Source of the DNA: Gaiellales bacterium | GTDB lineage: Bacteria; Actinomycetota; Thermoleophilia; Gaiellales; Gaiellaceae | Length of the DNA: 64,000 nt | Assembly (NCBI GenBank): GCA_038236705.1 | Contig: JBBRZN010000007.1 | Location: 8,741 to 72,740 of the forward strand | Direction of reading: 5' to 3' | Part shown: positions 1-20,959 of the stretch, piece after piece | Layout of the letters: each line of letters starts with the position of its first letter | Numbering within the stretch: position 1 is the stretch's first letter | Made by a program: the position numbers and the translations under genes | The notes under the pieces: model-generated | Told to the model about the DNA's origin: nothing | Database searches by the model: none | What the model saw: only the letters and a program-made list of their open reading frames with translations

Positions 1-272
1 CCGACCGTGGCCAGCACTCGCCTTCCCGCGCGGGCGGCCGCGTGCGCCCGGACGAACCGCCACGCGAGGCGGGCGAAGAGCAGCGCCACGCCCAGCTTCA
101 CCCCGGCGAGCAGGAACGGGTAGTAGTCGGCGCCCGAGTAGCTCGGAGTGGCCACGTGGCGACCGAAATCGAGGCGGTGGATCAGACTGCGGCCGGCAAG
201 CTCGGCCACGAGGGCGAGCAGCGCGAAGGCCAGTCCGGCCGACAGGCGCTGATGCCGCCTTGCTTGCTGCAT
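1..272 (-). CDS. hypothetical membrane protein, N-terminal part only (gene runs off left edge)
   Basis: Reverse-strand ATG at 272-270 opens MQQARRHQRLSAGLAFALLALVAELAG... It has hydrophobic helices, GC3-rich codons and no stop before position 1. It is absent from the ORF track because it is open-ended. Confidence 0.4.
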   Translation of the reverse strand, partial: MQQARRHQRLSAGLAFALLALVAELAGRSLIHRLDFGRHVATPSYSGADYYPFLLAGVKLGVALLFARLAWRFVRAHAAARAGRRVLATV

Positions 273-316
273 GTGCGCAGTGTGCCTAAGACGGCACAGG
301 TGATCAAACGGCCGGA

Positions 317-703
317 TCAGCCGAGGACGGTCAGATTCCAGCGCGGGCGGCACGGGCGATCGAAGCCCATCAGCAGGATCCGCTGCCACCGGCCGAGGCT
401 GAGCTCGCCGTCGCGGAAGGGAATCTGCTCGCTGCGCGGGCCGAGCAGCCCGCAGAGCAGCCGCTCCCGCTCGCGCTCCTCCTGGGGCACGAGGCGCGTG
501 AGCAGGTCCTCGAGATCCGAGAAAAAGCCGGTTTCACGTTCCTGCACCCGCACCAGAGCGACGTCGTCCAGCGGCGAGACGTAGGCGATCCCGCTCGCGT
601 GGCCCGCCCCTGCGAGCTCCCGCTTCACGTCGTTGGTGATGTCGAGCACAGTGAGCGACGGCAGCGCCGAGGCAATTGAGTACGGGACCTCGACGCTGGT
701 CAT
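317..703 (-). CDS. YjbQ/UPF0047 family protein (secondary thiamine-phosphate synthase-like)
   Basis: ORF 317..703. The segments LDITNDVKRE..GIAYVS..FRDGELSLGRWQRILLMGFD resemble the YjbQ family as I know it. Its ATG overlaps the ispH stop (ATGA at 700-703). Confidence 0.7.
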   Translation of the reverse strand: MTSVEVPYSIASALPSLTVLDITNDVKRELAGAGHASGIAYVSPLDDVALVRVQERETGFFSDLEDLLTRLVPQEERERERLLCGLLGPRSEQIPFRDGELSLGRWQRILLMGFDRPCRPRWNLTVLG

Positions 704-1638
704 GCGGTGGTCACTTCCCGCGGAAGGCGGAAGCTGACGTTCTCCCGGGCCACCTCGACCTCACCGAGCTCGTCGAAGCCGAAGGAGGCGAGGCTGCGCA
801 GGACGGCCGCGACGAGCTCCTCGGGAGTGGAGGCGCCCGCGGTCAGGCCGACCGTCTCGTGCCCGGCGAGCAGTTCGGGGTCGAGGCCGCTCTCGCCGTC
901 GATCAGCCGCGCGGTCGCTCCGTTGCGCTCTGCCACCTCCACGAGGCGGCGCGCGTTCGAGCTCGTCTCGGAGCCGATCACGAGGATCAGCGTCGCGCCG
1001 CCCTCCGCCAGCGCCTTGACCGCGTCCTGGCGGTTCTGGGTCGCATAGCAGATGTCGTCGGCGGCAGGCCGCTTCAGGTCGCCGAAGCGCTCTCCGAGCG
1101 CGTCCACGGTCTCGGCGACGTCGTCGAGCGAGAGCGTCGTCTGCGTGATCACCGCGATCGGCTTGCCGCCGGAGTCCAGCTTCGCCGCGTCCTCGGGCGA
1201 CTCGATCACGACCGTGTCCTCCGGCCGCTCGCCGCGGGTGCCGATCACCTCGACGTGATCGGCGTGGCCGACGAGCGCGACGAGGTGGCCGCTGTCGGCG
1301 TAACGCCGGGCCTCCGCGTGCACCTTCGAGACGAGCGGGCAGACCGCGTCCACCACGACGAGCCCGCGGCTCTCGCAGGTCTGCCGCACCGACGGCGCGA
1401 CGCCGTGCGCGGAGAGCACGCAGATCGCCCCGGGCGGAATCTCGTCCTCGTGGTCGACGAACACCGCGCCGAGCCGCTCGAGCCGCTTGACCACGTGGTC
1501 GTTGTGCACGATCTGGTGGCGGACGTAGACCGGCGCGCCGTGCTTCTCCAGCAGGATCTCCACGATCTCGATCGCGCGGTCGACTCCGGCGCAGAAGGAG
1601 CGAGGGGCGGCGAGGAGGACCTGGCCTACGAGGACCAC
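700..1638 (-). CDS. ispH: 4-hydroxy-3-methylbut-2-enyl diphosphate reductase
   Basis: The C-terminal 312 aa of ORF 700..2256 carry the three conserved Cys contexts: PRSFCAGVDRAIE, AVCPLVSKVH and ICYATQNRQ. GTG at 1638 is the likely start; the upstream part of the ORF is Arg/Pro-rich shadow sequence. Confidence 0.9.
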   Translation of the reverse strand: MVLVGQVLLAAPRSFCAGVDRAIEIVEILLEKHGAPVYVRHQIVHNDHVVKRLERLGAVFVDHEDEIPPGAICVLSAHGVAPSVRQTCESRGLVVVDAVCPLVSKVHAEARRYADSGHLVALVGHADHVEVIGTRGERPEDTVVIESPEDAAKLDSGGKPIAVITQTTLSLDDVAETVDALGERFGDLKRPAADDICYATQNRQDAVKALAEGGATLILVIGSETSSNARRLVEVAERNGATARLIDGESGLDPELLAGHETVGLTAGASTPEELVAAVLRSLASFGFDELGEVEVARENVSFRLPREVTTA

Positions 1639-2210
1639 CCCTTCGCCGCTGCGCCGAGCCGGTCGAGCGCGCGCTTCGCGTCGGAGGCGGCGCGGGCGAA
1701 GCCGCGAGGCTCTCGCGCGAAGGCGCGGACGAGGCCGGGCCAGTCGTAGGCGCCGGCCGGCTTCACCGAGTCGCAGATTCCGTGCAGCGTCCGCTCGGGG
1801 GTGTCGCTGACCGCCCGCAGGACGCCGCGCAGACGTCCGCTCCGGGCCAGCGGCCCGCTCTCGAGATCGACCGCGTCGGCGCCGGTCAGCTCGTGCAGCC
1901 GGCGGCGCTCGGCCGGGTCGTCCACGACCTCGTCGGAGGCAAGCATCGTCACGGCCTCTGCGCCCGGGACGCCGAGCGGCCCGCCCTCCCAGAGCACCGA
2001 GCCCTCCCGGTCCACCACCCGCGTCGCGTCGAGGACGGTGCCGGAGGCGAGGCCGTCGCGCAAGGCGCCGGCGAGGCCGAACGAGACGACAGGCCCCTCG
2101 GGCACGCCGTTCGCCGCGCCGAGCCCGACGAGTGCCGAGCGCGCACCGGCGCGGCGAGCGACCCGCCGCTCCGCCGTTGTGGCGCAGGCGAAGAGTGGGT
2201 CGGCGGGCAG
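1626..2210 (-). CDS. hpnG: hopanoid-associated phosphorylase HpnG (PNP/UDP family)
   Basis: The last ~195 aa of ORF 1626..3182 contain VVSFGLAGALRDGLASGTVL and ADAVDLESGP. The gene sits between hpnH and ispH, as in known hopanoid clusters. No ATG/GTG/TTG is in frame near the N-terminus, so CTG at 2210 is only a best guess. Confidence 0.6.
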   Translation of the reverse strand: MPADPLFACATTAERRVARRAGARSALVGLGAANGVPEGPVVSFGLAGALRDGLASGTVLDATRVVDREGSVLWEGGPLGVPGAEAVTMLASDEVVDDPAERRRLHELTGADAVDLESGPLARSGRLRGVLRAVSDTPERTLHGICDSVKPAGAYDWPGLVRAFAREPRGFARAASDAKRALDRLGAAAKGWSS

Positions 2211-2362
2211 CGTTGCCGGTTTCCGGGCGCGCGAAAAGCGAGCCAGGGGAGGACATAGGGAGTGCCCATGCTCCGTTGCATGGGCGCGACTGAGGACGCT
2301 GCCTGGCGAAGTCTTTGCAGCCGCACGGGAACCGGTGGACGTTGTTCGCCGGCCCACTGCTA
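2192..2362 (+). repeat. degenerate third copy (C) of the ~160-bp TIR/hairpin element
   Basis: The left end AGAGTGGGTCGGCGG matches AGAGGGGTTGGCGG of copy B. The core TAGGGAG-GCCCATGC/GCATGGGC hairpin-CGACTGAGGACGC lies at 2255-2299, with the same ~70-nt spacing from the left end as in copies A and B. The right end is poorly conserved. Confidence 0.45.
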
Positions 2363-3364
2363 CCCCGTCAGCGTCCACGCCGCGCTGCGCACGGTTTCCC
2401 TGACGCTGCCGGTCGCCTCGAAGGCTGCCGATGGCTCGAAGCCGGAATGGATCGCGCAGTGCTCGCAGCGCGCGTCGTTGCCGGGCCCGTACTCCTCCCA
2501 CTCGATCCCGTCCAGCAGCGCCTCGTAGGTCGGGAAGATCCCGTCGGTGAGCAGGTAGCACGGGCCTTTCCAGCCGTACGGGTTGCGCGTGATCGAGCCC
2601 CAGGGCGCGCAGGCGAGCTTGCGGTCGCCGGTCAGGAAGTCCTGGTAGATGGGGCTCGCCAGCCAGCGGTAGCCGTTCTGGCGCGCGGCCGACCGGATGA
2701 CGCGGAACTTCTCCTCGTGCTCGGCGCGCGTCATCGTCAGGTTCGGGTCGATCTGCGAGTACTGGTAGCCCGGCGCGACGAGCATCCCGTCGATCCCGAC
2801 ATCGTCCGTGAGGTAGCCCATCATCTCGACCACCTCGGCGGGATCGGTCTCCTTGAAGATCGTCGTGTTCGTGGTGACGCGGAAACCGGCTTCGCGCGCC
2901 TTGCGGATCGCGTCGACGGCGACGTCCCACAGGCCCGGGTAGTCGCAGATGTAGTCGTGGATCTCGCGCATCCCGTCGAGGTGCACGACGAAGGTCAGGC
3001 GCTTGTTCGGCTCGAAGACGTGCAGGAACTGCTCCAGTCGGAGCGCGTTGGTGCAGAGCTCGATCGTCTTGTTCAGCTCGAGGAACCCTGCGACCACCTC
3101 CTCGATGCCCTTGAAGACGAGCGGCTCGCCGCCGCAGATCGAGACGACGGGCGCCGGGCACTGCTCGCCGGCGTCGACGCACTCCTCGACCGAGAGGCGC
3201 GCCTTGTTCGACTCGTACTCCCGGATCTTCCCGCAGCCGATGCAGGCGATGTTGCAGGCGAGCGTCGGCTCGAGCATCAGGACGAGCGGGTACCGCTCGC
3301 CCTTGCGCTGCTGCTGCGTCACGTAGCGGGCGATCTGAACGGTGGGAGCGAGCGGAAACTTCAT
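2360..3364 (-). CDS. hpnH: adenosyl-hopene transferase, radical SAM
   Basis: ORF 2360..3364 has the CxxxCxxC motif (ACNIACIGC) and reads full length like HpnH. It lies immediately downstream of shc, with a 4-nt overlap at 3361-3364. Confidence 0.9.
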   Translation of the reverse strand: MKFPLAPTVQIARYVTQQQRKGERYPLVLMLEPTLACNIACIGCGKIREYESNKARLSVEECVDAGEQCPAPVVSICGGEPLVFKGIEEVVAGFLELNKTIELCTNALRLEQFLHVFEPNKRLTFVVHLDGMREIHDYICDYPGLWDVAVDAIRKAREAGFRVTTNTTIFKETDPAEVVEMMGYLTDDVGIDGMLVAPGYQYSQIDPNLTMTRAEHEEKFRVIRSAARQNGYRWLASPIYQDFLTGDRKLACAPWGSITRNPYGWKGPCYLLTDGIFPTYEALLDGIEWEEYGPGNDARCEHCAIHSGFEPSAAFEATGSVRETVRSAAWTLTG

Positions 3365-5151
3365 CGACTGAGCCTTTCTCGTAGACGGCCGAGAGCGAGC
3401 AGCGGGAAGTGGAGACGGTACAGGTGGTAGCGAATCATGAAATCAAGCGGGAAGCCTGTGCCGGTGAACTGCCGTTCCTCCCAGTCGCCGTTTTCCTGCT
3501 GTGCGTTGCAGAGCCACTCCGCGGCGCGCCGGGCGGGCCGGCACTCCGCCTCACCTGCAGCGACATAGGCTAGTAGCGCCCAGGCCGTTTGGGAAGGTGT
3601 GCTTTCGCCCCGGCCTCGAGAGGCGAGGTCCGAGTAGGAACGGATGTTCTCGCCGAAGCCGCCGTCCTCGTTCTGCACCGAGTCGAGCCACGCGACCGCG
3701 CGGCGCATCGCGGGGTGCCCGGGCTCGACCCCGCAGGCCTCAAGCGCGGGCAGCGCCGCCCCGGTGCCGTAGAGGTGGTTGACCCCCCAGCGCCCGAACC
3801 AGGAGCCGTTGGGCTCCTGCTCGGCCAGGAGCCACTCGAGCCCGCGGCGCACCTCGTCCTCGTAGCCGTGTTCCGGCGCCAGGGCCTCCAGCGCGTGGGC
3901 GGTGACGTCGGCGGTCGGCTCGTCGGTGACCTTGCCGAAGTCGCAGAACGGCAGCTTGTAGAGCCAGAAGGCCTCGTTGTCGACGTCGAAGGCGCCCCAG
4001 CCGCCGCTGCGCGATTGCATTCCGGCCGTCCAGGCGAGCCCCCGGTCGACTGCGTCGCGCCCGCGATGGGAGCGGCGCAGTACCAGCGCGACCACGGCCG
4101 TGTCGTCAACGTCCGGGTAGAGGTCGTTCTCGAACTCGAAGGCCCAGCCGCCGGGCGCGAGCTCCGGACGGCGGATCGCCCAGTCTCCCCGCACGGTGAC
4201 CTCCTCGTGCTCGAGCCACTCGGCTGCGCGTACGAGCGCGGGGTGCTCGGGGCCGAGGCCGGAGTCGCGCAGCGCCAGCACGGCGAGGCCCGTGTCCCAG
4301 ACCGGCGACTGGCAGGCCTCCGGGCGCAGGCGGTCGCCCTCGTCGATCACGAACCCCTCCCAGCCTTCGACGGCGCAGCGCAGAGTTTCGTCCTCGAAGC
4401 CGTGCCCGAGCGCGACCAGCATCAGGATCGACCAGACCCACGGCGGCTGGATCCCGCCCCACGAGCCGTCGGCCTCCTGATGCGCCCGCACCCAGCGCTC
4501 GGCCTCCCGCAGCGCGGCTCGCCGCAGGCCCGAGGGCCGCGGCGCGGGCTTGCTCTGTCCCGGGCACGCGCCGATCTCGCGCAAGTCGATCCGGGCGGGG
4601 CGCACCGGCCGCAGCGCGCGGCAGGCGGCGAGCGGGACGTACGTGCCCCGGGCCCAGCAGGAGAAGTCGTAGATGGAGAGTGGGGCACTTGGAGGAAGCA
4701 GGACCAGTTCGACGGGGATCGGCGTGATCCGCTGCCACGGCCACTGGCCGAGCAGGGCCAGGAAGCACTTGGTGAAGATGCGCGTGCATGCTATCCCGCC
4801 CTGCGAGCGGATGAAGTTCCGCGCCTTCTCGCCGGGATCCACACCGGCGAGCTTCAGCGCCGCGTAGGCCTCGACCGAGGTCGAGAGGTCGGGCGGCCCC
4901 TCGAACCAGATCGACCAGGTGCCGTCCTCGCGCTGCCGCGCCAGCAGCTCGTTCGCGATCTTGCGGTCGAGCTCGGGGCTGCGCAGGCCGAGGACGTGGT
5001 GCCAGAAGAGATGCTGCGCGATCATGGTCGCGTTCGACTCGAGCTCCCCGACCCAGTAGCCGTCGCCGTGCTGGAGCTCGAGCAGGCGCGCCGTGGCCGC
5101 GTCGATGACCCCGTCGAGGCGCGTCTCGATCCGTTCCGGCGCGATGGTCAA
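3361..5151 (-). CDS. shc: squalene-hopene cyclase
   Basis: The C-terminal 596 aa of ORF 3361..6189 show QHGDGYW, repeated QW-type motifs and the catalytic DxDD (YPDVDDTAVV). The TTG start at 5151 overlaps the hpnE stop (TTGA). Confidence 0.9.
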   Translation of the reverse strand: MTIAPERIETRLDGVIDAATARLLELQHGDGYWVGELESNATMIAQHLFWHHVLGLRSPELDRKIANELLARQREDGTWSIWFEGPPDLSTSVEAYAALKLAGVDPGEKARNFIRSQGGIACTRIFTKCFLALLGQWPWQRITPIPVELVLLPPSAPLSIYDFSCWARGTYVPLAACRALRPVRPARIDLREIGACPGQSKPAPRPSGLRRAALREAERWVRAHQEADGSWGGIQPPWVWSILMLVALGHGFEDETLRCAVEGWEGFVIDEGDRLRPEACQSPVWDTGLAVLALRDSGLGPEHPALVRAAEWLEHEEVTVRGDWAIRRPELAPGGWAFEFENDLYPDVDDTAVVALVLRRSHRGRDAVDRGLAWTAGMQSRSGGWGAFDVDNEAFWLYKLPFCDFGKVTDEPTADVTAHALEALAPEHGYEDEVRRGLEWLLAEQEPNGSWFGRWGVNHLYGTGAALPALEACGVEPGHPAMRRAVAWLDSVQNEDGGFGENIRSYSDLASRGRGESTPSQTAWALLAYVAAGEAECRPARRAAEWLCNAQQENGDWEERQFTGTGFPLDFMIRYHLYRLHFPLLALGRLRERLSR

Positions 5152-13994: not shown

Positions 13995-14452
13995 CAGCTG
14001 CCACCCTGCACACCAATCACGGCGCGATCGCGATCGAGCTCTTCGACGAGGACGCGCCCAAGACCGTGGAGAACTTCCTCAAGCTCGCCGGCGACGGCTT
14101 CTACGACGGCGTCGTCTTCCACCGGATCATCCCCGACTTCATGATCCAGGGCGGCGATCCGACCGGTACCGGCACGGGCGGCCCCGGTTACACCTTCGAG
14201 GACGAGTTCAACGAGCGCAAGATCGAGCGCGGGGCGCTCGCGATGGCCAACGCGGGCCCGAACACGAACGGCAGCCAGTTCTTTATCGTCACGACCTCGG
14301 CCGCGCCCTGGCTCGACGGCAAGCACACCGTCTTCGGCCGCGTCACCGAGGGCATGGACGCCGTGGACGCGATCGAGCAGGTCGACACGGACGCCCAGGA
14401 CAAGCCGCGCGAGCCGGTGGTGATCGAGCGGGTGGAGCTGGTCGAGAGCTAG
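13991..14452 (+). CDS. peptidyl-prolyl cis-trans isomerase, cyclophilin type
   Basis: [25 protein letters not shown] and NTNGSQFFI are present. The ATG overlaps the preceding stop (ATGA). Confidence 0.92.
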
Positions 14453-14566
14453 CCCGGCGTCAGCTATCTGGATCACCAGAGACCGGGTACGAGCCGAACG
14501 GTCGTTCGCGCGTAGCCCACGAAGGCCTCCCCGAGACGATCAGCGGCGGCATCTGCGAGACGCGAC

Positions 14567-15397
14567 CTAGCTCGCGCGGTAGAACAGCCAGGCGTCGTGC
14601 ATGCGCTGCGCCTGCCCGGCGGTGAACTCCGTGTAGCAACTGTCGTACGAGTAGTCCATGTAGTTGTGGATCGGATCGAGGCCCGGATCCGCCGGGCACG
14701 TGTCGTTCCCGACCGGACAGCCCGACGACGGGCTCCTCTGGGCCGGCGTGTCGGCCACGAAGTCGCCCTTCGCGTTGCAGCCGCCGTAGAAGGTGTGCTC
14801 GAGGTTCAGCCAGTGGCCGACCTCGTGTGTCACCGTCTCGCCCTGGTCGTACCTGCCCGCGTAGGTCGTGGACGTGCCTGGCATGGACTCCCAGTCGATC
14901 ACGATTCCGTCGAGGTAGGCCTGCCCCGGCTTGGTCACGATGTCCGGCAAGAAGGCCCAGCCGAGATATGCGCCGGCCGTGGTCGAGTACAGGTTGAGCG
15001 CGTTGTTGCCGCCGTCGTGGAGCGTCTGCTTCATCGAGTGCTCGTTCGTGCCCCCGATTCCGCCGTAGAACCAGTCTGCATTGTCGGTGCGGGTGACGCC
15101 TGCGAGCGTGAAGGAGAAGCCGGTGTTGACCCCGCCCTCGAAGCCTGCGTACGTCATGTTCAGCACGCTCATCTGGTCGGAGATCTGCTTGCTCGTCAGG
15201 CTGCCGATCGAGCCGTCGGTGATGACGTGGAAGTAGACCGGCACCGTCGCTCGGAAGTTCTTTCCGGCCTTGCCCTGGGCCGAGGCGGGCAGGTCCGCCA
15301 CCGCGTCGTTCGAGAGCGGCTCCCGCGCATCGAAGCCCCGCCCGAACGCTGTGGGCGTCAGCTTGTTGTAGACCGAGAACAGCTCGTCGCCGGCCAC
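14567..15397 (-). CDS. M43-family zinc metalloprotease (pappalysin/ulilysin-like), separated by a frameshift from its signal peptide
   Basis: HEVGHWLNLEH zinc motif and several Cys pairs. A signal peptide, MKRAKLVLFVALAVGLYTAATVSPAAVA, with SD AAGGGAGAGG is encoded at 15537-15358 in a different frame. Confidence 0.8.
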   Translation of the reverse strand: MAGDELFSVYNKLTPTAFGRGFDAREPLSNDAVADLPASAQGKAGKNFRATVPVYFHVITDGSIGSLTSKQISDQMSVLNMTYAGFEGGVNTGFSFTLAGVTRTDNADWFYGGIGGTNEHSMKQTLHDGGNNALNLYSTTAGAYLGWAFLPDIVTKPGQAYLDGIVIDWESMPGTSTTYAGRYDQGETVTHEVGHWLNLEHTFYGGCNAKGDFVADTPAQRSPSSGCPVGNDTCPADPGLDPIHNYMDYSYDSCYTEFTAGQAQRMHDAWLFYRAS

Positions 15398-15643
15398 GGC
15401 CGGGCCGGCATGCAGCTCGTGACCTGCTTCGCCAGGCTCGGCGCCGCCTTACGCGCCACTGCCGCAGGCGAAACCGTGGCGGCGGTGTACAGCCCGACCG
15501 CAAGCGCCACGAAGAGAACCAGCTTGGCTCGCTTCATCCTCTCCCTTTTTCTCGTAGGTGCTTGGACTCAGATTTTCGACGCAGAGTAGACCGACTTGCA
15601 TCGCGAGTCCAATATCCGCCCTGGCGTGGGATAGATTCGACCG

Positions 15644-16384
15644 GTGCACCGGGATGACGACGGCTACTTCGACGAGCGCGTCGCGGCCAGATACGACGAG
15701 TCCTCCGCGGAGATGTTCGACCCGGAGGTCGTCGACCCGGTCGTCGACCTCCTCGTCGAGCTAGCCGGCAGCGGGCGCGCGCTCGAGCTGGGGATCGGCA
15801 CCGGCCGGATCGCGCTACCGCTTGGGCAGCGCGGAGTGCCGGTGCACGGGATCGAGTTGTCGAAGGCGATGGTCGCGAAGCTGCGCGCGAAGCCGGGCGG
15901 CGAAGAGATCGGCGTGACGATCGGCGACTTCGCGACGACGTCCGTGGACGGGACGTTCTCCGTCGCGTACCTGGTCTTCAACACGATCATGAACCTGACG
16001 ACGCAGGAGGCGCAGGTCGCCTGCTTCCGCAACGTTGCGGCGCACCTCGAGCCCGGCGGCCGCTTCGTCGTCGAGGTCGGCGTGCCCGACCTCCGGCGCC
16101 TCCCGCCGGGCGAGACCTTCCGCGCCTTCCACGTGAGCGAGCGCAGGTGGGGGATCGACGAATACGACGTCGCTGCCCAGGGCCTCACCTCCCACCACTT
16201 CCGGATCGTCGACGGAGAAGCCGACCGTGTCTCGGTTCCCTTCCGGTACGCGTGGCCGGCGGAGCTCGACCTGATGGCGCAGCTCGCCGGGATGAAGCTG
16301 CAGGACCGCTGGAACGGCTGGAAACGGGGGCCGTTCACGAGCGACAGCCGCAAGCACGTCTCGGTCTGGGAGAAGCCGTCATGA
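15644..16384 (+). CDS. class I SAM-dependent methyltransferase
   Basis: SAM motif I at ALELGIGTGRIALPL. 246 aa, GTG start. Confidence 0.85.
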   Translation: MHRDDDGYFDERVAARYDESSAEMFDPEVVDPVVDLLVELAGSGRALELGIGTGRIALPLGQRGVPVHGIELSKAMVAKLRAKPGGEEIGVTIGDFATTSVDGTFSVAYLVFNTIMNLTTQEAQVACFRNVAAHLEPGGRFVVEVGVPDLRRLPPGETFRAFHVSERRWGIDEYDVAAQGLTSHHFRIVDGEADRVSVPFRYAWPAELDLMAQLAGMKLQDRWNGWKRGPFTSDSRKHVSVWEKPS

Positions 16385-16389
16385 CGGGG

Positions 16390-18852
16390 TCAATCGAGTG
16401 ATTCGAGGGCGAGCGTGACGGCCTCGTCGATCGTCAGCGCCCGGCCTTGCTCCCATGCTTCGGCCAAGGCGCTTTCGTCGAGCCAGGCGCGGATCTCGGA
16501 GAGCGTTTGCTCGTTCATCCTCGCGACCCAGGCCTCGCTGACGCCGATCTGCTCTCGCTGAGCCTCGAAGCAGAAGAGAAGCCGGGCGGCCGTATCAGCT
16601 TTCCCGGGGAGCACGGCGAAAATACTGGCGCTGCGACAGAGACTTTGCGCGATTTCGTGAAGAGAGCCGAGGTCGCGACAGGCGAGAAGGTTCTGCTTCC
16701 CAAGCGCGAGGGCGTCCTCGATCCGGCCCTGCTCGAAGGCGATCATCGCCAGCGAACCCAGCGTCCCCGCCTCCGTCTCCTTGAAGCCGAGTGCTTGCGC
16801 CTGAGCAAGGTTCGATTCGTGCAGTATGCGGGCGCGCTCGAGGTCGCCACGGCTGTGGTAGGTGAAGGCGAGCGTACGCGTCGCCGAGACCGCCTCACGC
16901 TCGTCGCCGGCCTTGCGGAAGAGGGCGAGGCTCTCCTCGGCGAGCTGCTCCGCCTGCTCGACGTCTCCTTCCTCGATGGCGGCCACGCAGAGCACGTTGA
17001 GATTGAAAGCGGCGCCTCGCGCGTCGCCAAGGCGGCGATGCAGCTCCAGTGCCTGCCCCGCGATCGACCTGGCCGACGGAACGTCTCCGCTCCCGTACGC
17101 CATGAGGGCTGCTCCGGTGAGAGCCCTGGCACGCGCTGCTGTCGGGCGCTCCTGGCCTCGGAGCGCGCTCTCTAGACGACGTCTCCCTTCGGCGACGTGC
17201 CCCCCCTCGTGCCAGAACTCCGACAGGACTCCTGCGAGTTGCAGGACAAGCTCGTTCTCCCCTGAGGCTGCGAGGTGATCGAGCGCTGCGCGGAGGTTGT
17301 CGTGCTCGGCCTCCAGCCGCCCGATCCATTCGACGGAGTACGCGCGTGTATTGGGCTCGGCTTCTTCGCCGAGCGCAAGGAAGTGTTCCGCGTGACGGCG
17401 CTTCAACGTCTCGGCCTCGCCGGAGTCCTCGAGCCGCTCGGCGGCGTATTCGCGGATCGTCTCCAGCATCCAGAAGCGGTCGCCCTCGCGGACGCGAACC
17501 AGACTCTTGTCGACAAGCGACTCGAGCGTGTCGAGATCTGCGTCGCAGACCGCTTCCGCCGATTCGAGCGTACAGCCGCCCGCGAAGACGGCGAGGCGCG
17601 CGAAGAGCCCTTGCTCGTCCTCGTTCAGCAGCTCGTGGCTCCACTCGATCATCGCGCGCAGCGTCTGCTGGCGCGGGTCGACGCCGCGGCCGGCCTTGAG
17701 CAGATCCAGCCGTTGCGAGAGCCGCTCGACGAGCTGCTCGGGCGAGAGGACTCGGACCCGCGCCGCCGCCAGCTCGAGCGCGAGCGGCAGGTTCTCGAGC
17801 CGCGCGCAGAGCTCCGGCACCATGGTGCTTGCGACGAAGCCCGGCAGGGTTGCACGCGCCCGGTCCACGAAGAGCTCCGTCCCATCCTCCGGCTCGAGCG
17901 GCGGGACCGGATAGGCCTGCTCGCCGGGAACCCGAAGCAGCTCGCGGCTCGTCACGAGTAGATGGACGTTGGGGCAGGAGCCGAGCAGCTCGGAGAGGCG
18001 GGGGGCTGCCTCGACGACGTGCTCGAAGTTGTCCAATAGAAGGAGCAGCGATTTGTCGGCCAGGTGCTCCGCCAGACCGTCCTTGGCTCCGAGCACCTGC
18101 CCCGCCGTCGTCAGGACGAGCTCGGGGTCGCGCAGCGGCGCCAGCGGTACCCAGAAGATCCCGTCGGGGTAGCGCTCGGCAACCTCGGCGGCCGCCTGCA
18201 GCCCGAGCCGCGTCTTGCCCGTCCCGCCCGGCCCCGTGAAAGTGAGCAAGCGAGCGTGCTCCAGCAACCCGCACACCTCGGCGAGCTCGTGCTCGCGACC
18301 GAGGAACGGCGTCGCCGGAATCGGCAGGTTCGTTCGGTAGAGACTCTTCAGCGGCGGGAACTCCTCGTCGCCGAGCTGGTAGATCCGCTCGGGCGCGGAC
18401 AGGTCCTTCAGCCGGTGCTCACCGAGGTCCCGCAGCCCGTCGGTGTCGAGGAGAGCGGCCGTCGAGGCCGAGATCAGCACTTGTCCTCCATGGCCGGCGG
18501 CGGCGATCCGAGCGGCACGGTGGACGTCGACCCCGACATAGCCTTCCTCGGCCAGGTGGGGGGTACCGGTGTGAAGGCCCATTCTGACCCGGATCGGGCC
18601 GTGGCTGAGTCCTTGGAGCGCCTGAGCGGCCGCCCGCAACGCACCCGGCGCGGTCGGAAAGGCGACGAAGAAGGCGTCGCCCTGGGTGTCGACCTCGACG
18701 CCGCCCTGGGCGCCGAACGCCTCCCGGAGGACACGGCGATGCTCGCCGAGCGCCTCGCCGTACGACTCGGCGCCGAGTTCGTGCAAGAGCTTGGTCGAGC
18801 CCTGCACGTCGGTGAAGAGGAAGGTGACGGTTCCGGCGGGGAGGTCGCGCAT
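16390..18852 (-). CDS. adenylate/guanylate cyclase domain - STAND/AAA ATPase - TPR protein (paralogue 1)
   Basis: Class III cyclase motifs FLFTDVQGST, TQGDAFFVAF and VDVHRAARI. Walker A at GPGGTGKTRL and a TPR-like helical C-terminus. No LuxR HTH is visible. Confidence 0.88.
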   Translation of the reverse strand: MRDLPAGTVTFLFTDVQGSTKLLHELGAESYGEALGEHRRVLREAFGAQGGVEVDTQGDAFFVAFPTAPGALRAAAQALQGLSHGPIRVRMGLHTGTPHLAEEGYVGVDVHRAARIAAAGHGGQVLISASTAALLDTDGLRDLGEHRLKDLSAPERIYQLGDEEFPPLKSLYRTNLPIPATPFLGREHELAEVCGLLEHARLLTFTGPGGTGKTRLGLQAAAEVAERYPDGIFWVPLAPLRDPELVLTTAGQVLGAKDGLAEHLADKSLLLLLDNFEHVVEAAPRLSELLGSCPNVHLLVTSRELLRVPGEQAYPVPPLEPEDGTELFVDRARATLPGFVASTMVPELCARLENLPLALELAAARVRVLSPEQLVERLSQRLDLLKAGRGVDPRQQTLRAMIEWSHELLNEDEQGLFARLAVFAGGCTLESAEAVCDADLDTLESLVDKSLVRVREGDRFWMLETIREYAAERLEDSGEAETLKRRHAEHFLALGEEAEPNTRAYSVEWIGRLEAEHDNLRAALDHLAASGENELVLQLAGVLSEFWHEGGHVAEGRRRLESALRGQERPTAARARALTGAALMAYGSGDVPSARSIAGQALELHRRLGDARGAAFNLNVLCVAAIEEGDVEQAEQLAEESLALFRKAGDEREAVSATRTLAFTYHSRGDLERARILHESNLAQAQALGFKETEAGTLGSLAMIAFEQGRIEDALALGKQNLLACRDLGSLHEIAQSLCRSASIFAVLPGKADTAARLLFCFEAQREQIGVSEAWVARMNEQTLSEIRAWLDESALAEAWEQGRALTIDEAVTLALESLD

Positions 18853-18881
18853 CCGCTCAATGATGAGAGGGGTGGCCGCCT

Positions 18882-18979
18882 TCGTCCAGCGAACTAGGCC
18901 CAGCTTCAGACAGACACATCAGGCAGGGCCGGGCTAAGACTTCCACTCCGAGCCCGTCCCCGCCGTGTTCGCTGGACGA
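18882..18979 (-). promoter_or_regulatory. 13-bp perfect inverted repeat (TCGTCCAGCGAAC / GTTCGCTGGACGA) enclosing 72 nt, between mini-ORF stop and cyclase-STAND start
   Basis: Read directly: arms at 18882-18894 and 18967-18979. The arm at 18967-18979 abuts the TAG of the 21-codon ORF. Confidence 0.4.
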
Positions 18980-19045
18980 CTAGAGGAGCCAGATAAGCAG
19001 CAGAATGATGATGATTACCGCGAGAACGCCACCACCGATGTACAT
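18980..19045 (-). CDS. 21-aa hydrophobic mini-protein MYIGGGVLAVIIIILLLIWLL
   Basis: The ATG at 19045 is preceded by AAAGGAGG with 6-nt spacing, the strongest SD in the region. The peptide is a single TM-like helix. It lies 128 nt upstream of, and co-directional with, gene 16390..18852. Confidence 0.4.
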   Translation of the reverse strand: MYIGGGVLAVIIIILLLIWLL

Positions 19046-20078
19046 CCGCAACCTCCTTTCGGTGCCGATTCCGGCGAATACCCGCTCGAATCGAAAACCG
19101 AACGTCTTGTGGATAGGAAATCTCCTCCATAAAGGGGTATCGAAGTGGATGTGCTCGCCTCCGAGACGATTTGGCGAGCAGGGTGAGAAGAAGGCCCGGC
19201 GCGGGCGCAGGCCCAAGGCCGCCGGCTAGCGAAACCAAGCGAGAACTGTTTCGATGGTGGGCCCGTTCGCAACAATAGGAAGGCCGGGTGGTTTTCTCTC
19301 TCTCCCCTGGGTGGTTTTGCCGCCACCTAGCTCCAGAGGCGGCCACCCGGCCTCTCCTGAATAGATGCCGCCTCGGAGCGCAACTTGCAGTCTCCAGTCG
19401 CTGCCTCCCGCGAGCCCCTTGTCACCCGCGCCCTCACGGGCACAGTCGGAGCCGCCCCAGTTCAGCAAGAGTCAGCCGCGACGGCAGAAGAGCCCACCTT
19501 CGCTAGCACAGCAAGTCACTGACGTAATTGCGGCTGGTCCTTTGCTAGCCTTGTCGAGCCGGGCCGCCCTCGGTGCTCTTCCTCTCCCCGGATGCTCTCC
19601 CGAGTTTTCGAGGTCGCAGCTTTGGAGACCCACGGCGGCTCGGCTTCTTACTGGGTCGAGGCAGCGGCCGGGCCTCTGAGGTCCACGCACGAGCGTCACC
19701 GGTTTGACTGACTAGTCAATCGGGGAAGTCGTCCAGCGTGAGCGGGGTTGGGGGAGGCCGCTCCAAGCGGCCCCAACTGCGGTGCCGCCCGGCGTGTTGC
19801 CGCAGACACGCTGGGTGGGCGGGGCCGCCCTAGGCGTTGGTTCGGCTCGCCCGCCCGGACGGTCGGTCTGCGAACTCGGTTAGCGGGAGCCCCTAATGCC
19901 ATTCGGTCGCTCTGCCGACAATGGTCATGAGTCGGGGCACCGGCATCGTCCCTCCCCGCCGGGGCGGGGCGTCGGCTAGCCGCAGACCTAGGCGCCCCCC
20001 GCCCCGGCTCTCTCCCTTTGCTCGTCCGGGGAAGGTGAGATGATCCCCTCTTCTGCGGCAACAAGAAAGGATCGGCCC

Positions 20079-20384
20079 ATGAATGGGATCCGACTGCTCC
20101 TCGCGGCCGTCGCTGCGCTCGCGCTACCGGCCGTCGCTGTAGCTGGCGCGACACCTGTCCCACAGCAGTTCTGCCAAGTTCAGTTCGTGGCGAGCGGCCC
20201 GTTGTATGACGGGGTTGGCATCACCGTCCGAACGCCGCGTGGCTCCAGCATGATCGTCTGCCGGGTAAAGGTGCCCCCGCCGCCGGAGACGATCCTGATC
20301 ACCTTCCCCGGCGCGAACGGGGACGTCGTCGTCGTCACGCGGAGCGGCACGGCAATCGCGGTTTTTCACTCATCGTTCAGGTAG
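20079..20384 (+). CDS. small secreted hypothetical protein
   Basis: MNGIRLLLAAVAALALPAVAVAGA is a signal peptide. AAAGGA lies 8 nt upstream of the ATG at 20079. 101 aa with two Cys. Confidence 0.5.
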   Translation: MNGIRLLLAAVAALALPAVAVAGATPVPQQFCQVQFVASGPLYDGVGITVRTPRGSSMIVCRVKVPPPPETILITFPGANGDVVVVTRSGTAIAVFHSSFR

Positions 20385-20467
20385 CTCGGCGTGAAGATTT
20401 CAGCTGGCAGCGGGAAGAGAGCCCGGTAACGGCGCTTCTCTTTTGCCCAAACCGCTGATTGAAGGGA

Positions 20468-20540
20468 AGCCGACGCGCGGATTCGAACCGCGGACCCCTT
20501 CATTACGAGTGAAGTGCTCTACCAACTGAGCTACGTCGGC
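20468..20540 (-). tRNA. tRNA-Thr (anticodon CGT)
   Basis: The reverse complement GCCGACGTAGCTCAGTTGGTAGAGCACTTCACTCGTAATGAAGGGGTCCGCGGTTCGAATCCGCGCGTCGGCT folds as a cloverleaf with a 7-bp acceptor stem, anticodon loop CTCGTAA and T-loop GGTTCGAATCC. CCA is not encoded. Confidence 0.93.
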
Positions 20541-20590
20541 GTGGGTCGGCGCAGTCTAGCGCGGCCCCGCGGCGCTTAGACTGCCGCCTG

Positions 20591-20959
20591 ATGCTCCGTC
20601 TCGTCGTCGCCTGGGCGATCAACGCGGCCGCGCTCTGGCTCGCCGACGCGCTCTTCGAGAGCGTTCGGATCGACGGCTGGAAGGCCTACCTGATCGGCGC
20701 CGCGGTGCTCGGGATCGCCAACGGGATCATCAAGCCGGTGCTCATGTTCCTGACCTTCCCGCTGATCGTGCTCACGCTCGGCGTGTTCATGCTCGTGATC
20801 AACATCGCGATGCTGGCGCTGGCCGAGTGGATCGCGCCCAACTTCGCGATCACCGGCTTCTGGAGCTACGTGGGCACCGTCGTGATCATCTGGCTCGTCA
20901 ACTGGGTCGCCCAAACGGCGCTCGACGCGCTCGAGAGCCCGCGCACGCGACTCGCCTAA
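20591..20959 (+). CDS. phage holin family IV / DUF360 membrane protein
   Basis: 122 aa with 4 TM segments and the motifs GAAVLGIANGIIKPVLMFLTFPLIVLTLGVFMLVINIAML. Confidence 0.75.
   Translation: MLRLVVAWAINAAALWLADALFESVRIDGWKAYLIGAAVLGIANGIIKPVLMFLTFPLIVLTLGVFMLVINIAMLALAEWIAPNFAITGFWSYVGTVVIIWLVNWVAQTALDALESPRTRLA

Follow-up and report, generated by a model that had tools for sequence, protein, structure and literature searches.

The stretch considered here, positions 18853-20078 of a 64-kb window (the whole stretch of DNA analyzed, contig C7:8741-72740), comes from a metagenome-assembled Gaiellales genome (G000; 87% complete, 2.37 Mb). These 1.2 kb are a mosaic of small units and not one element. 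The left bound is the start codon (18852) of a minus-strand 820-aa gene with nucleotide-cyclase, STAND-NTPase, and TPR domains (Pfam), and to the right a tRNA-Thr (CGT) is found at 20468-20540 on the minus strand (ARAGORN and Rfam), with its 3′ end facing the region. Inside lie the 5′ flank of the cyclase gene, a 21-codon gene, a pseudogene, element C, an orphan spacer, element D, and element E, the last being a predicted small RNA (sRNA) with a predicted sigma-28/WhiG-type promoter. A DNA search of 40 related genomes, of which G007 is the nearest relative, returned separate patches, each with different partner genomes and places. We somewhat favor the view that the gap is a recombination-prone junction where an ancestral block meets variable DNA on the tRNA side, gathering small genetic units, with E as its functional core.

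Element E (element span 19900-20019, plus strand; predicted RNA 19929-20019) has seven BLAST-level relatives, which gave a core of ~110 nt with a three-helix consensus. Helix P1 pairs 19929-19938 with 20001-20010, P2 (19940-19944/19958-19962) bears the C/U-rich loop AUCGUCCCUCCCC, and P3 (19966-19977/19986-19998) presents the conserved loop AGCCGCAG (19978-19985). The window copy scores 82-91 bits with the two family models, R1 and R2, which locate the family in 31 of the 41 genomes of the genus, including 14 of the 14 high-quality ones, at one to four copies each, as well as in five other genera of the taxonomic family. Neither model finds a member in 29 genomes of the order's other families or in 10 genomes of other genera. 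Across 43 copies, in alignments that were fitted to the model and thereby inflate pairing, 94.1% of the cells pair (vs 31-49% with the partners slid), 23 of 25 pairs have changed on both sides, and none of 500 shuffles reaches the observed values. The same alignment holds 71 G-U against 18 A-C combinations, an excess that argues for selection on an RNA made from the plus strand. Judged by these comparisons, element E belongs to a new, previously undescribed, genus-wide family of predicted sRNAs with covariation support.

The consensus of sigma-28/WhiG promoters comprises a −35 element TAAA or T(A/C)AA, a 16-nt spacer (N16), and a −10 element GCCGATAA with a conserved central CGA (PMC8325347; bioRxiv 10.64898/2026.01.14.699351). 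The predicted promoter of E (19894-19921, plus strand) consists of TAAT (19894-19897), a 16-nt spacer, and GCCGACAA (19914-19921), followed by 7 nt and then P1; its −10 element agrees with the consensus at 7 of 8 positions. The position is conserved in 27 homologous loci, where TGCCGA is nearly invariant and the common octamer GCCGA(C/T)AA ends 6-8 nt before P1, the distance from box to P1 being constant across loci. A CT(A/C)A(A/G/T) element occurs 15-17 nt farther upstream in 12-14 of the 27 loci, compared with a per-position background of 0.6%. Thermoleophilia carry WhiG together with the c-di-GMP-armed anti-sigma factor RsiG (PMC8325347), and the present genome encodes a WhiG-type sigma factor (G000:C6:15194-15871) that scores 289 bits against TIGR02479 (FliA_WhiG; cutoff of 189.6). 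The E family thus appears, from its conserved upstream sequence, to be switched on by WhiG.

The surroundings of E differ from copy to copy. Downstream flanks are unrelated, apart from subgroup-specific hairpins such as the terminator-like hairpin with compensatory changes that directly follows P1 in G010, G173, and G003. Some copies are followed by a gene on the same strand and others by a convergent gene, and two copies follow same-strand cupredoxin-like genes at a distance of ~100 nt. Homologues of the 101-aa gene downstream of E occur in relatives near tRNA-Val, tRNA-Glu, and tRNA-Lys without E, which, together with the variable neighbors, argues for a free-standing RNA gene and not a dedicated cis-leader. 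A tRNA lies within 1.5 kb of 8 of the 43 copies, always with the copy on its 3′ side, where ~2 would be expected by chance. Such proximity is consistent with copies being carried on tRNA-linked variable DNA or surviving in it, but most copies lie elsewhere.

Several ideas about E were considered and dropped. The AGCCGCAG motif is too common (654 sites) to inform as a genome-wide marker. Pairing of the upstream box with P2 or P3 as a switch is contradicted by a box that stays constant while P2 varies, with no covariation between them. A perfect 8-nt match (GCCGCAGA/UCUGCGGC) connects an E loop with a neighboring 5′ untranslated region (UTR), but the duplex energies rank at 8-31% among random windows, and we take the match to be chance.

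A second structured unit, element C (19254-19362, with a conserved tail at 19363-19413, plus strand), begins 25 nt after the stop codon of the pseudogene. It comprises an outer helix (GGCCGGGUGG/CCACCCGGCC), a pyrimidine run (UUUUCUCUCUCUCCCCU), and an inner hairpin, and either copy of its GGGTGGTTTT direct repeat can serve as the 5′ strand to a single CCACCC 3′ strand. With filters off, model R1 aligns 19254-19362 end to end (19.8 bits, E 3e-4), and the order of parts (AACAAT box, outer helix, pyrimidine run, inner hairpin, closing strand) is that of E. On the strength of this model alignment, C is considered a diverged relative of E. Further C-type copies are found at the syntenic G007 site (82% identity), at G007:C28, and at G012:C62; the G007:C28 copy is antisense to both neighbors, and the region orthologous to it is missing from the incomplete assembly of G000. 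No WhiG-type promoter is recognizable for C.

Element D (19700-19833, plus strand) opens with a 26-nt block in which the palindrome TTGACTGACTAGTCAA occupies 19704-19719. Two GC-rich hairpins come next, and the second has a GCCGCAG loop. The genome has a single additional copy, at C6:2144-2269, which is situated 210 nt downstream of a tRNA-Gly; its first 26 nt, palindrome included, are identical, and overall identity is 78%. Frame-breaking indels separate the two copies, and coding is therefore ruled out. Because a near-identical perfect palindrome (TTGACTGATCAGTCAA, C34:11000-11015) precedes the start codon of an acyl-CoA dehydrogenase-like gene by 14 nt, the D palindrome is most simply read as a putative repressor operator, and D as a whole as a probable promoter or leader module under repressor control. 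The C34 palindrome, which has the same half-sites, is itself likely a TetR-type operator. Membership of D in the E family was rejected, as the resemblance is limited to that of its second hairpin to P3, at a nonsignificant 6 bits, and the placement of D upstream of E is not a fixed arrangement, since it is not conserved in other genomes.

Comparison with G007 separates the stretch into two parts. Window positions 14001-16378 and 18979-19413 are colinear with G007:C3 at 82-91% identity, and 16390-18978, which holds the 820-aa cyclase gene and its 5′ flank, is missing from the otherwise colinear locus, either because this lineage gained it or because G007 lost it. In G007 the next gene after the methyltransferase gene is the 21-codon gene. 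Farther right, 19414-20465 has no counterpart at the syntenic locus, where 2.4 kb of other DNA is found instead, so the block beside tRNA-Thr does vary between relatives, a question that the earlier note had raised. G007 possesses a complete tRNA-Thr(CGT), the 3′ half of which recurs as an identical 42-nt copy 3.6 kb away, and the C-terminal fragment of a tyrosine integrase abuts the tRNA; the duplicate and the fragment are the signature of integration at tRNA-Thr. In locus L010 (G007:C3:33000-46000) the tRNA occupies 321-393 and the copy 4031-4072; the 3.6-kb interval contains an HNH-like ORF and a TolB/PD40-like beta-propeller ORF, and positions 1-4072 look like an integrated islet.

No such traces are found on the present side: a search of the 64-kb window at up to 3 of 27 mismatches gave no second copy of the tRNA 3′ end (att repeat), no partial att copy occurs within 16000-20430, and Pfam identifies no integrase or recombinase in 18853-20078. 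The kilobase not shared with G007 and the scar in that genome nevertheless support a recombination hot spot at tRNA-Thr. The left part (18979-19413), with mini-gene, gene wreck, and element C, is common to the nearest relative and would be ancestral, whereas the right part (19414-20467), on the 3′ side of tRNA-Thr, would be lineage-specific and assembled from modules found elsewhere, namely D, E, and a small secreted-protein gene.

The mini-gene of the left part (18980-19045, minus strand; read directly) specifies a hydrophobic peptide of 21 codons, MYIGGGVLAVIIIILLLIWLL, with a GGAGG ribosome-binding site (RBS) 6 nt upstream (19052-19056). It shares 91% nucleotide identity with G007, and three of three differences are synonymous third-position changes; the mini-gene is therefore real, and it would represent a live membrane-peptide gene. 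Its stop codon is abutted by an 18-nt inverted repeat (18882-18899/18962-18979) in the cyclase flank (18853-18979), a flank that belongs to the block missing from G007, with which synteny breaks between 16378 and 18979. A type I toxin-antitoxin pairing of mini-gene and C was considered and rejected: the small hydrophobic peptide and strong RBS fit, yet RNA complementarity fails, with duplex energies of the C and E loops against the mini-gene start region at ranks 573-1010 of 1500 random windows, and the C-type copy at G007:C28 has no mini-gene nearby.

The pseudogene (19106-19229, plus strand), recognized by alignment to a G007 ORF, consists of a leftover upstream region (19106-19136) and the 3′ half (19137-19229) of a ~66-aa gene, the product of which ends in RRGRKPK before the TAG stop at 19227-19229. 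It has lost ~115 nt with the RBS, the start codon, and the first ~36 codons, and further deletions of 4 nt and 1 nt break the frame. The syntenic G007 site retains an intact 67-aa ORF (MARKSIIV...RRGRKPKAAS; L010 6622-6825, minus strand), and an intact paralogue is present in G000 (C5:47939-48127). The family, encoded by 91 of the 101 genomes in the taxonomic family and often as several paralogues, has no match or name in Pfam, NCBIfam, or PDB. Its members follow the pattern MARK..I.VSD..G.EI....A..V.I.Y.DARRG...LDV...E...LA.KG.K.ARRGRKPK, with a basic RRGRKPK tail that resembles an AT-hook.

Just outside the stretch, the 101-aa gene module (20024-20384, plus strand) consists of a conserved upstream region of ~55 nt and the gene itself (ATG at 20079). 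The protein has a signal-peptide-like N-terminus and homologues with 72-76% amino acid identity in G182, G162, and G169. The long regulatory leader that the earlier note had offered as one candidate is disfavored on both sides of the stretch: homology of this module begins only ~55 nt upstream of the ATG, and the cyclase gene is absent from G007 though the 18979-19413 block is present there.

The gap had been described at the outset as devoid of credible protein coding, hairpin-rich, reduced in GC, and immediately downstream of tRNA-Thr. It indeed has no credible long ORF, and the codon-position periodicity of GC is gone over about 19160-19880, where the difference between codon phases is 0.00-0.06. 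For comparison, the holin-family gene at 20591-20959 shows 0.6 and the cyclase gene 0.3-0.5, so protein coding is genuinely absent from most of the stretch. The 21-codon gene at 18980-19045, which is under purifying selection, and the gene remnant at 19137-19229 depart from that description. The fall in GC is confined to the left third (18900-19350, 57-60%), with 65-69% in the remainder, and the tRNA is not the immediate neighbor, as its 3′ end lies at 20468 with the real 101-aa gene (20079-20384) in between. Hairpin richness relative to shuffles is strong at 19275-19360 (z −6.5, within element C), moderate at 19925-20015 (z −2.8), and absent at 19700-19835 (z −1.4). Read directly from the sequence, all four features that had been singled out exist: a hairpin at 19747-19777, CTGCGG/CCGCAG at 19777-19805, the GGGTGGTTTT repeat at 19286-19295 and 19309-19318, and the palindrome at 19704-19719, which brings stops in all three frames.

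Only the tRNA passes the gathering thresholds of Rfam 15 in the 64-kb window, so no family reaches threshold in the stretch, and a relaxed search (E ≤ 5) of 18700-20600 returns nothing besides the tRNA, 6C RNA (RF01066) included among the families not found. A generic promoter and terminator scan reports no sigma-70 promoter and one weak terminator below chance level, and public records list no gene calls for the contig. Pfam supports no ORF in 18853-20078; the 104-aa ORF of the orphan spacer (19414-19699) is without a match, and the spacer itself has no codon periodicity and no match in the 40 relatives or elsewhere in its own genome.

As a working model, element E would be a self-contained sRNA gene. 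RNA polymerase with WhiG would start ~7 nt after GCCGACAA, at the foot of P1, and the product would be a three-way-junction RNA of ~90-100 nt that displays the C/U-rich loop and the almost invariant AGCCGCAG loop. By analogy with C-rich-loop sRNAs, the likeliest partners of these loops are G-rich ribosome-binding regions or some other complementary mRNA site, and the WhiG regulon would thereby gain a post-transcriptional arm. Transcription, sigma factor dependence, and a trans-acting mode with targets are inferred. A more ambitious version holds that E and C are lineage-specific sRNAs and direct targets of c-di-GMP-controlled WhiG in Thermoleophilia, that their loops regulate mRNAs (e.g., for pilus or surface functions), and that their recurrent position 3′ of tRNA genes reflects spread by tRNA-targeting integrative elements; we regard it as tentative, somewhat short of probable.

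Besides the inflated pairing counts noted above, several observations weigh against a WhiG-driven sRNA. Lone promoter sites with two or fewer mismatches number 52 genome-wide versus 45-62 in shuffles, which is the chance level, so the promoter call depends wholly on the cross-genome conservation of both elements and their spacing. In about one-fifth of the loci (the subgroup of G080, G149, and G181), GCCAACAA is combined with a −35 element of the TTGA type, and several copies have no recognizable −35 element. The minimum-free-energy fold of the window copy prefers an alternative pairing, owing to a 4-nt insertion. Most copies, that of the window included, are without a clear U-tract terminator after P1, and transcription in the window could run on into the 101-aa gene. 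Finally, the E and C loops show no complementarity above background to the adjacent 5′ UTR or the mini-gene start.

Comparisons with known systems place E near several of them without equating it with any. The 6C RNA (RF01066; B11 in Mycobacterium, 6C in C. glutamicum) is an actinobacterial sRNA of ~100 nt whose C-rich hairpin loops pair with G-rich mRNA sites with no chaperone (PMC6486639; PMC5014011). The stable scaffolds of E and C likewise expose a loop rich in C and U (CCCUCCCC, CUCUCUCUCCCC). In contrast to the two tandem hairpins of 6C, E is predicted to form a three-way junction closed by its 5′ and 3′ ends and has a second, invariant AGCCGCAG loop; its promoter is sigma-28/WhiG-like where 6C uses SigA/SigB, and it is limited to one genus and a few sister genera where 6C is phylum-wide. 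The sigma-28 (FliA) sRNAs of E. coli (MotR, FliX, UhpU, FlgO) and of Campylobacter exert post-transcriptional feedback on their own regulon (PMC10578931; PMC11187230). As with these, a sigma-28-type promoter is proposed to drive a short structured RNA, but there is no kinship in sequence or structure, and the FliA sRNAs are mostly UTR-derived and Hfq-dependent, whereas E looks free-standing, resides in an actinobacterium, and is only predicted to depend on WhiG.

With the WhiG promoters of Rubrobacter and Streptomyces (TAAA-N16-GCCGATAA) E shares the −10 element, the −35 element, and the 16-nt spacing. Published WhiG targets are protein-coding, comprising type IV pilus genes, c-di-GMP enzymes, whiH, and whiI (PMC8325347; bioRxiv 10.64898/2026.01.14.699351); a noncoding target is not described in these two papers, and the start site of E is predicted. 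The right part of the stretch also recalls tRNA-linked islets and att scars, with variable DNA on the 3′ side of the tRNA and a duplicated tRNA 3′ half in G007, the difference being that the window has neither att repeat nor integrase and fits only in its variability and modular content.

The closest competitor to a functional E, although we judge it unlikely, takes 19414-20467 (D, E, and the 101-aa gene) for one or more eroded integrative elements at the 3′ end of tRNA-Thr, in which the structured parts are cargo or debris without function. The earlier note had entertained a decayed integrative element for the whole gap, and this idea finds partial support for 19414-20467 only, a segment absent from G007 though both flanks are common to the two genomes. 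The 42-nt tRNA duplicate 3.6 kb away and the integrase C-terminus in G007 speak for it, as do the 101-aa homologues beside tRNA-Val, tRNA-Glu, and tRNA-Lys, the 8 of 43 E loci within 1.5 kb on the 3′ side of a tRNA, and the D copy 210 nt downstream of a tRNA-Gly. The window, however, is without an att-like tRNA repeat, integrase, or compositional break in this part, and ~80% of the E copies are away from tRNAs. The near-universal occurrence of E in the genus, its covariation, its G-U bias, and its promoter-like box indicate selection and not debris. Erosion of this kind would account for origin and not function, and it is compatible with E as the functional core of a recombination-prone junction.

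That C and E are DNA repeats (palindromes of the REP or MITE type) or plain terminators and 3′-end stabilizers is less credible still. They are multicopy and GC-rich, each is closed by an inverted repeat of 10-12 bp, and weak reverse-strand matches occur at the same sites, yet there are only one to four copies per genome (in G000, one E and one C), the G-U excess is strand-asymmetric at 4:1, and no terminal repeats beyond P1 or target duplications appear in the flanks examined. The position of C 25 nt after a (pseudo)gene stop, the two E copies ~100 nt after cupredoxin-like genes, and a plain hairpin with the same GAGCCGGG stem at C62:2706-2764 suit this reading; the asymmetric upstream box at fixed spacing, which a terminator or a MITE would not need, the conservation of the loops (AGCCGCAG and the C/U run) while the stems vary, and the G007:C28 copy antisense to both neighbors do not. 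Least probable by far is that the whole 1.2 kb forms one long structured noncoding RNA, as the earlier note had also proposed, or a long leader of a neighboring gene. Unusual length, many hairpins, and the missing ORF invite that idea, but conservation is piecewise, each piece having different partners, and a single long RNA is therefore rejected. The stretch includes a gene on the minus strand and a pseudogene on the plus strand, the middle 286 nt have no relatives, Rfam gives no match, and the flanking cyclase gene is absent in G007. Only sub-segments are conserved, and the structured RNA is divided among three separate units of ~110-135 nt.

WhiG, RsiG, and c-di-GMP form a well-studied developmental and motility switch in Actinomycetota. 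If the WhiG-driven sRNA reading of E is true, E would be the first noncoding output of the RsiG-WhiG switch, and the deep-branching Thermoleophilia would have a conserved sRNA under a WhiG-type promoter, giving the switch a post-transcriptional layer. An RNA of ~100 nt with a 28-nt promoter would also make a compact, testable reporter. The E family, strongly backed by covariation, would be a new entry in the sparse sRNA catalog of uncultured soil Actinomycetota, and for annotation, a suspicious "empty" kilobase near a tRNA resolves into a mini-gene, a pseudogene, predicted RNA genes, and recombination junctions.

Variants and possible relatives of E were also encountered. In one subgroup (L017, L022, L026, and L027 in G080; L019 and L024 in G149), a second conserved domain (..UCCCCCGUAGGU..GUUGCCCGAACGUUUGGGGGG) follows ~40 nt after E, giving a unit ~230 nt long with a TTGAT-type −35 element. 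Additional hairpins at G000:C77:4290-4352 (plus strand) and G000:C13:35003-35094 combine a GAGCCGGG(G/U)G...C(C/A)CCCGGCU closing stem with a pyrimidine run. The C77 hairpin has a GCCGCAG loop and lies 231 nt downstream of a tRNA-Glu, and that of C13 lies 187 nt downstream of a tRNA-Gly(CCC). With sequence-only profiles, the C77 site scores E 7.3 against the E profile, while the C13 site was found by pattern scan alone; going by these shared parts, both hairpins may be miniature relatives of E and C.

Other candidate WhiG sites are scattered through the genome. Among its best matches are TAAA-N16-GCCGATAG at G000:C8:10617 (minus strand), before a 110-aa GerE/LuxR-type regulator, and TCAA-N16-GCCGATAC at G000:C33:15888 (plus strand), before a 293-aa MshEN-domain protein, MshEN being a c-di-GMP-binding domain of pilus and secretion ATPases. 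A site with a good WhiG box on C17 was discarded, as a 444-aa ORF starts there and the site does not represent an sRNA. Just upstream of a response-regulator gene (MRILLVDDHPITRDALA...), the inverted pair CTTATCGGCAG-N8-CTGCCGACAAG (G000:C8:27429-27458) may represent either a pair of diverging sigma-28-type −10 elements or an operator with palindromic symmetry.

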